64,000 bases of DNA from Escherichia phage JS10. The notes beneath the pieces were generated by a model, which saw only the letters and a program-made list of their open reading frames with translations, was not told the origin of the DNA and did no database searches. The DNA lies in the sequence record EU863409. One strand, given 5' to 3'. The stretch's first letter is position 1; the number at the start of each line of letters is the position of its first letter. This document shows, piece after piece, positions 6,493-7,076 of the stretch. The translations under genes and the position numbers were made by a program.

Positions 6493-6786
6493 TTATTTTG
6501 TAATTTCTTTGATTTTAGAAACTACTTTATCTTTGGTAAGACCGGAAAAAGTCTTATATTTTGTAAAGTGGATATCATCACCAAGATTAATATAATATTT
6601 CTTTTTAACCGTATTGAATGCTATACTAACAGGTTTACCATTTACTGTAATAGTAATTTGCTGAGCCTTATCAACATCACCTGAGCCAAAGGCTCTTTTA
6701 ATATCGCTACTAATATCGGCCATAGCCGCTTTGTTAATGGAATACAAATCTGTCGATTCTTTGATAAATTCTTGATAAGTTTTCAT
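6493..6786 (-). CDS. internal-protein-like head protein with capsid targeting sequence
   Basis: Starts MKTYQEFIKE, resembling the T4 IP N-terminal CTS MKTYQEFIAE; IKE motif compatible with gp21 cleavage. Confidence 0.6.
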   Translation of the reverse strand: MKTYQEFIKESTDLYSINKAAMADISSDIKRAFGSGDVDKAQQITITVNGKPVSIAFNTVKKKYYINLGDDIHFTKYKTFSGLTKDKVVSKIKEITK

Positions 6787-6836
6787 TTTTTTGTTTCCGT
6801 TAGGTTGGGTTTGTTTTGATAGGTCTATAGTATCAT

Positions 6837-6865
6837 GCCTATAGACCTTGTAAACATCTTTTTAA
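6837..6865 (-). promoter_or_regulatory. early-type promoter GTTTACA-N17-TACTAT with 10-bp inverted repeat
   Basis: Minus strand GTTTACA AGGTCTATAG gcatgata CTATAGACCT ATCAAAAC; perfect palindrome across the -10 region. Confidence 0.45.
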
Positions 6866-6866
6866 A

Positions 6867-7076
6867 TTATTTTAGCCATGAAGAATTTTCAGAGACCCAG
6901 CTATCTATATCCGATTGAGGACCAAAGAAGTAGGCAACCCCATTAGATAACTCTCCCGAAAGCCAATTTATACCTTTCAGGCTTTCTTTAAATTCTTCAG
7001 GAGTACAAGAAACCTCTATTGCCACCGAAGAGGCCGACTCCATTGCTTCTGTTAAAAATTCTTTGTATGATTTCAC
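6867..7076 (-). CDS. internal-protein-like head protein with capsid targeting sequence (ipI position)
   Basis: Starts [11 protein letters not shown] (CTS-like); adjacent to 57B as ipI is in T4. Confidence 0.55.

Follow-up and report, generated by a model that had tools for sequence, protein, structure and literature searches.

Two predicted internal-protein genes with T4-type capsid targeting sequences in the ipI slot of Escherichia phage JS10 as candidate anti-defence cassettes

Two small adjacent genes of Escherichia phage JS10, here called ORF1 and ORF2, are probably accessory internal-protein (ip) genes sitting in the slot held by ipI in T4, with products that would be packaged in the head, injected with the DNA and used as anti-defence cassettes. 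We analysed a 64,000 nt stretch of sequence record EU863409 (the window), in which both genes lie on the minus strand. JS10 is a JS98-type T4-like coliphage of the genus Dhakavirus, and positions 6200–7600 of the window are 98% identical to JS98 and MN04.

Results

ORF1 and ORF2 lie between 57B and trna.4

The ORF listing of the window contains an ip-like gene of 97 aa with an ATG start (ORF1, 6493..6786, minus strand; N-terminus MKTYQEFIKESTDL) and an ip-like gene of 69 aa with a GTG start (ORF2, 6867..7076, minus strand), the latter also defined by its homologues. Along the minus strand the order is gene 1, 57A, 57B, ORF2, ORF1, trna.4, trna.3, trna.2 and three tRNAs, to be compared with 57B, ipI, trna.4, trna.3 and trna.2 in T4. 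This synteny from 57B to trna.4 places both genes in the ipI slot, and both are thus found within a recognised ip locus (57B to trna.4, or the e/denV region). The earlier note had set the second gene next to 57B, where ipI lies in T4, and the order 57B–ORF2–ORF1–trna.4 agrees with it.

The upstream neighbour of ORF2 (7073..7528, minus strand) is annotated as 57B in JS98 and belongs to the anti-CBASS Acb1 family (Pfam PF23474 Acb1, E = 8.8e-59), while the slot is bounded downstream by a trna.4 homologue encoding a small membrane protein (6239..6436, minus strand; phrog_1692, E = 2e-33, and JS98 annotation). The 57B product is called 'RNA ligase' in RefSeq records, yet its Pfam match is to Acb1. 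The GTG of ORF2 shares bases with the stop codon of 57B (GTGA) and is preceded, at a distance of 6 nt, by a GAGGA Shine-Dalgarno sequence. The gene for a putatively injected protein thus appears to be translationally coupled to an anti-CBASS gene by this start/stop overlap; the same overlap of 57B with the first ip gene recurs in many related loci.

Elsewhere in the window (290–1534, minus strand), the members of a tandem array of five small paralogues (74, 69, 65, 93 and 96 aa) share a C-terminal W-x-S-S-(S)-x-x-C motif, their C-termini being WYPSSC, FWFSSSMSC, SWVSSSYEC, GWVSSSSEC and AWVSSSAMC. Their PHROGs matches are phrog_899 and phrog_4882, two families of unknown function.

Both proteins begin with a T4-type capsid targeting sequence

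T4 IPII and IPIII (from NC_000866) start with MKTYQEFIAE followed by A, and T4 IPI with MKTFKEFTSTTTPVSTITE followed by A. Codons 1–10 of ORF1 (6757..6786, minus strand) encode MKTYQEFIKE, followed by S, and match the IPII/IPIII tag at 9 of 10 positions. The corresponding codons of ORF2, read directly from the sequence (7047..7076, minus strand), give 6 matches in 10, the remaining changes being conservative. The first 10 residues of T4 IPIII suffice for head incorporation; within them, targeting depends mainly on residues 4 and 7, and processing mainly on residues 8 and 10, with gp21 cutting after L/I-x-E (PMC9026906). All of these functionally mapped residues are kept, as Y4, F7, I8 and E10 in ORF1 and as Y4, F7, L8 and E10 in ORF2, and each tag ends in a gp21 cleavage motif followed by a small residue (IKE↓S and LTE↓A, arrows marking the predicted cut). 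The L-T-E↓A of ORF2 also occurs in the gp23 of the window (GSFLTE↓AEIGG). The predicted mature forms are an 87 aa protein of 9.6 kDa and pI 9.6 for ORF1, and a 59 aa protein of 6.4 kDa and pI 4.1 for ORF2.

The pattern MK[TS][YF]x[ED]F[ILM]xE is found at two of the 5779 candidate start codons of the window, those of ORF1 and ORF2, and at none in 50 shuffles of the window. We rejected a further candidate, MKSFKEVIYEA at the start of a 75-aa ORF (51214–51441, plus strand), which agrees with the tag at 5 of 10 positions: it is UvsW.1 (Pfam E = 6.5e-25), not an internal protein. The UvsW.1 ORF overlaps the end of the uvsW helicase gene.

The head proteins portal gp20, gp67, gp21, gp22, gp23 and gp24 have their genes in the window too. 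Among these, the gp21 prohead protease (37804..38439, plus strand; Pfam Peptidase_S77, E = 1.1e-103) is the expected remover of the tag, and the gp22 scaffolding core protein (38470..39285, plus strand; Pfam T4_CASP, E = 2.3e-90) its expected docking partner. The claim from which this work started, that both proteins carry a T4-type capsid targeting sequence ending in (I/L)-x-E, is upheld by the tag matches and the retained residues, and alignment with internal proteins of T4 and related phages supports the N-terminal similarity. Judged on these features, the products of ORF1 and ORF2 are very likely to be genuine packaged proteins bearing a capsid targeting sequence.

The ip locus is hypervariable and incompletely annotated

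We surveyed the locus across related phages by anchoring on 57B, retrieving 36 related viral loci and removing the N-terminus before the cargoes were clustered. Downstream of 57B, these loci hold 65 tag-bearing ORFs of 40–157 aa that fall into 22 cargo clusters, and the N-terminal logo of the tagged ORFs reads M-K-T/S-Y/F-x-E-F-I/L/M-x-E-A/S/T. According to the passages of PMC3012670 and PMC12373910 that cite Repoila et al. 1994, T-even internal proteins are highly diverse and have only the capsid targeting sequence as a common feature. ORF1 and ORF2 are new alleles at this well-known hypervariable locus, and the current picture of the locus is left unchanged by them.

In JS98 RefSeq NC_010105, the 648-bp stretch that contains both genes (72191–72838; 3226–3873 of the retrieved locus) is unannotated. 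MN04 annotates only ORF1, and homologous ORFs in IME281 and others are annotated 'internal head protein' or 'hypothetical protein'. The omissions from the JS98 and MN04 records reflect incomplete annotation and do not count against the genes. The second ip locus of JS98, in the e/denV region and outside the window (2311–4161 of the retrieved locus), holds three tag-bearing genes, one of them an IpIII homologue (198 aa) and the others gp112 (99 aa) and gp114 (132 aa, 'hypothetical'). Counting these together with ORF1 and ORF2, at least five internal proteins are predicted for a phage of the JS98 type.

ORF2 is a divergent Ip6-family protein under purifying selection

The mature parts of ORF1 and ORF2 showed no similarity to mature T4 IPI, IPII or IPIII by blastp (three-sequence comparison, best E = 1.6), and no cluster link to T4 IPI, IPII or IPIII was found at E < 1e-4. 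Searches of Pfam, NCBIfam and PDB sequences returned nothing informative for either protein. Both fall into PHROGs families of unknown function, with weak 'internal head protein' matches that are driven by the tag, and sequence and fold searches found no resemblance of either cargo to any protein of known function. The mature T4 proteins are basic (pI 9.0–9.7), whereas mature ORF2 is acidic at 4.1. The earlier note had described the cargoes as novel, which stands as far as T4 IPI, IPII and IPIII are concerned; it does not stand for ORF2 in a wider comparison, as set out below, and for ORF1 it is tempered by homologues in phages PEi20, CC31 and MHG19.

Homologues of ORF2 in IME281, IME341 and EcS1 have an ATG at the codon of the JS10 GTG, and pairwise dN/dS values among seven phages are 0.06–0.25; ORF2 is under purifying selection. 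Close homologues occur in 27 phage records, and a search of 5.8 billion proteins returned five clusters. An AlphaFold2 model built from six sequences (pLDDT 81.7) has a helix-strand-helix-strand-strand-helix arrangement. When the mature part was compared with Ip6 by hhalign, without the tag, the match reached 94.2% probability (E 1.2e-7, 42 columns), and Foldseek matched the model to the predicted structure of the VR7 'Ip6 putative internal head protein' in BFVD (TM 0.71, probability 1.0, E 4.5e-3). Against the PDB, Foldseek gave nothing significant for the ORF2 model (best E = 0.08, to generic small alpha/beta folds). On the strength of the tag-less alignment and the VR7 fold match, ORF2 is therefore a divergent Ip6-family protein rather than a novel cargo.

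Ip6 (ipVI) is an 'internal head protein' of Tequatroviruses, 77 aa long, present in 246 phage records and of unknown function. It shares with ORF2 a C-terminal G-P-x-x-x-I-D/E-x-W-x-x-x-N motif, the tag and the locus. However, the two proteins are only ~24% identical, and Ip6 is the longer by 8 residues, with a central KKDKMGEMP insertion that is missing from ORF2. Their genes also differ in position: Ip6 adjoins trna.4, whereas ORF2-type genes directly follow 57B and overlap its stop. ORF2 thus extends the Ip6 family.

The ORF1 cargo belongs to a rare family with tagged and tag-less members

JS98 and MN04 encode the ORF1 protein without a single change (100% identity). Beyond these, homologues of 32–37% identity are found in phages of three other genera, namely Edwardsiella phage PEi20, Enterobacter phage CC31 and Yersinia phage MHG19. 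ORF1 is rare, with one cluster in the search of 5.8 billion proteins, and in an exhaustive representative search the MHG19 protein (P0008) was the sole real homologue added. Two further hits were rejected, P0007 (Ig-like repeats) and P0009 (YVTN beta-propeller repeats), their scores being beta-strand or compositional matches summed over many repeats. Profile comparison revealed no relation between the ORF1 family and the 21 other ip cargo clusters (best 13.6%) nor with the Ip6 family, and hhalign against the T4 IPI, IPII and IPIII families gave a probability of at most 8.4%. The single-sequence structure model of ORF1 has a pLDDT of 59.5, and we set aside its best PDB match, to B. subtilis YkuJ (E ~0.01), as too unreliable; T4 mature IPI was absent from the structure matches of this same model. 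By sequence, the ORF1 cargo is a tiny, rare and uncharacterised family, comprising also the PEi20, CC31 and tag-less MHG19 copies.

PEi20 ORF126 and CC31 p131 (phrog_27873) are homologous to ORF1 over its full length (tblastn E 2e-9 and 5e-5, respectively) and, like ORF1, begin with canonical tags (MKTYNEFINE↓A and MKTYNEFMFE↓A); ORF1 has a 7-residue insertion that they lack. Unlike ORF1, they are located at the e–denV ip locus, in the slot of T4 ipIII/ipII. The presence of a tagged ORF1-type cargo in the e–denV locus of PEi20 and CC31 therefore means that cargoes move between the two ip loci.

The MHG19 homologue is placed differently again, between a topoisomerase gene and motA in the early-gene region (2427–2752 of the retrieved locus). 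Its annotated TTG start lies a few bases past the -10 box of its own GTTTACA-N17-TAGAAT promoter. Translation most likely begins instead at an ATG (locus position 2492), which follows a GGAG and would yield an 86-aa tag-less protein, beginning ~3 residues from the predicted cleavage site of ORF1. Since this homologue would then be a tag-less product of an ordinary early gene, the ORF1 cargo can presumably work without injection, and the family offers a natural comparison between tagged and tag-less versions of one cargo.

Only the cargo-coding part of ORF1 has been exchanged

In blastn comparisons with IME281 and IME341, homology runs from 57A through ORF2, the intergenic element and the first ~30 nt of ORF1, which are its tag DNA. 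It breaks at 6757–6764 and resumes at 6499. Relative to the sister Dhakaviruses, only the ORF1 cargo-coding segment (6500..6756, minus strand, from the blastn breakpoints) is replaced, with two other ip genes in its place in IME281 and IME341, and the tag codons of ORF1 form the 5' boundary of the swapped segment. The 33 nt at 7047–7079, which hold the ORF2 tag DNA, are 76% identical to the ORF1 stretch 6757–6789 (repeat D2). ORF2 itself is precisely deleted in three other sister loci.

Direct repeats of 63 nt, 73% identical, bracket ORF1 (6444–6506 and 6810–6872), and each contains a promoter of the form TTTACA-N16/17-TACTAT. In the copy upstream of ORF1, the spacer is N16 and the -10 box is extended. 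This upstream intergenic region (6787..6866, minus strand), assigned as a PeSL-like early promoter with stem-loop on the promoter match, the inverted repeat and the fold, contains a perfect 10-bp inverted repeat (6821–6830 and 6839–6848), and its RNA is predicted to fold with -18.0 kcal/mol (z = -5.2). The second promoter and stem-loop copy, lying between ORF1 and trna.4 (6437..6492, minus strand; direct repeat, promoter match and fold), reaches -14.6 kcal/mol (z = -2.9). In T4-like phages, modules are shuffled by means of promoter-early stem-loop (PeSL) elements (Arbiol et al. 2010, PMC2839356), and ORF1 has the hallmarks of such elements in its repeated flanks, each with a sigma-70-like early promoter and a stable stem-loop. 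We found no promoter/stem-loop element of this kind upstream of ORF2.

ORF1 thus has only an early-type promoter and ORF2 none of its own, and the minus-strand late promoter TATAAATA nearest to them is at 10518. We assume that both proteins are nevertheless supplied at the time of prohead assembly.

As a separate observation, the early-promoter motif GTTTAC-N17-19-TA(C/T)(T/A)AT has six minus-strand copies in the window (59875–59904, 41212–41241, 6827–6855, 6461–6490, 3567–3595 and 3099–3128), four of which (41212, 6827, 6461 and 3567) are followed by AG(A/C)CCTATCAAAACA. By sequence, the six copies look like a conserved promoter and leader family of the phage.

Discussion

Altogether, these data suggest a pathway in which each protein begins with a 10-residue capsid targeting sequence, as read from the sequence, and the subsequent steps follow by analogy. 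The tag would dock the protein on the gp22 scaffolding core during prohead assembly, as T4 experiments lead us to expect. Cleavage by gp21 after Glu10 would leave a basic 87-aa ORF1 product and an acidic 59-aa ORF2 product in the head, and both would leave it together with the DNA on infection of the next host cell, ahead of phage gene expression. In that cell they may bind and block a host defence that would act on the modified DNA as it enters, most probably a modification-dependent (Type IV, GmrSD-like) nuclease. ORF1 and ORF2 would in addition be exchangeable cassettes, recombination in the tag DNA and in the flanking promoter/stem-loop repeats swapping the cargo alone. Four observations weigh against this pathway: the distance to the nearest late promoter, the acidic pI of mature ORF2, the tag-less MHG19 copy of the ORF1 cargo, and the failure of either cargo to resemble a protein of known function.

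The reading of internal proteins as injected anti-defence effectors is the current hypothesis of the field: T4 Ip1, Ip2 and Ip3 are inhibitors of distinct GmrSD enzymes, one each, and the same has been proposed for all proteins of both ip loci (PMC12373910). Its extension to ORF1 and ORF2, which the earlier note had also put forward, is a plausible application of that standing hypothesis. By this analogy, we favour, with some confidence, an anti-defence role of some kind for the two proteins; that they are specifically inhibitors of Type IV nucleases is a more tentative proposition, to which we give somewhat less than an even chance.

Other readings of the same loci deserve consideration. Packaged proteins might serve the virion itself, through DNA charge neutralisation, head-core filling or assistance in assembly, and not act against immunity at all. 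In its small size and basic pI, mature ORF1 resembles the T4 internal proteins, and T4 IPIII-minus and IP0 mutants do show head-assembly aberrations (PMC9026906). A structural role does not, however, predict 22 unrelated cargo families at one locus, nor genes whose presence varies between genomes that share over 95% identity, ORF1 being in only 3 phage records and ORF2 precisely deleted in three sister loci; the acidic character of mature ORF2 also fits it poorly, and we regard a virion role as improbable. To an equally low degree we credit the notion that the tag is a mere recombination scar on cytoplasmic early proteins that are not loaded into heads in useful amounts. That notion draws on the sigma-70-type early promoter of ORF1 with no late promoter nearby, on the MHG19 homologue most likely starting at an internal ATG without a tag, and on the tag-coding DNA being a recombination boundary. 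Yet the mapped tag residues persist in ORF1, ORF2 and almost every one of the 65 related ORFs, whose cargoes have diverged beyond recognition, and in T4 the 10-residue tag alone packages foreign proteins such as GFP (PMC9026906).

That one or both ORFs are chance frames in an intergenic spacer is the least credible of these explanations and very improbable. The GTG start of ORF2 and the record annotations are compatible with it, as neither ORF is annotated in JS98 (NC_010105, 72191–72838) and MN04 lists ORF1 alone. Against it, ORF2 combines low dN/dS across seven phages, an ATG in its relatives, a Shine-Dalgarno sequence and a confident fold; ORF1 has protein-level homologues in three other genera; and homologous ORFs are annotated in IME281 and other phages. 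Packaged and injected anti-defence proteins remain our preferred reading of both genes.

Among phage counter-defences, internal proteins alone are in place inside the cell at the moment of DNA entry, and targets are known for just three of them, T4 Ip1–3, each with a different GmrSD. Each uncharacterised ip allele is thus a candidate for a new pair of inhibitor and defence. The targets of ORF1 and ORF2 may differ from those of T4 because the lineage has a different DNA modification. A more speculative proposal, which we consider unlikely, is that the two proteins are injected inhibitors of defences beyond the GmrSD variants blocked by T4 Ip1–3, for instance of a nuclease that recognises DNA containing arabinosylated 5-hydroxycytosine. 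If this were true, the acidic 6.4-kDa mature ORF2, whose gene is coupled to acb1, would be the more unusual of the two and might work differently, e.g. by DNA mimicry or by blocking a non-nuclease sensor, and the MHG19 copy would document how an early anti-defence protein became an injected one by gaining a 10-residue tag.

Comparison with known systems

The flanks of ORF1 resemble PeSL elements in combining a sigma-70-like promoter with a stem-loop that lies between its -35 and -10 boxes or covers them, and the replaced DNA ends at the downstream repeat. They differ in that the upstream boundary of the exchange is the tag-coding sequence inside ORF1 and not the upstream PeSL, and in that their stems contain A/T (GGTCTATAG), whereas those of RB49 and phi1 are of the GGGG...CCCC type.

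T4 IPI, IPII and IPIII have the same targeting and cleavage tag as ORF1 and ORF2, near-identical in the case of IPII and IPIII. T4 ipI occupies the same slot and has the same kind of promoter/stem-loop flanks, and mature IPI, at 8 kDa, is close in size to the mature ORF1 and ORF2 products of 6–10 kDa. As in T4, gp21 and gp22 are encoded by the phage, here within the JS10 window. The mature parts, in contrast, differ from those of the T4 proteins in sequence and in profile, and ORF2 is acidic where the T4 internal proteins are basic. Unlike T4, Dhakavirus lacks T4's glucosyltransferases (PMC2993671), and arabinosylated 5-hydroxycytosine is predicted for its DNA (PMC13326640). Because the DNA modification of JS98-type phages is different, the specificity of any nuclease targeted by ORF1 or ORF2 would differ from that of the T4 case.
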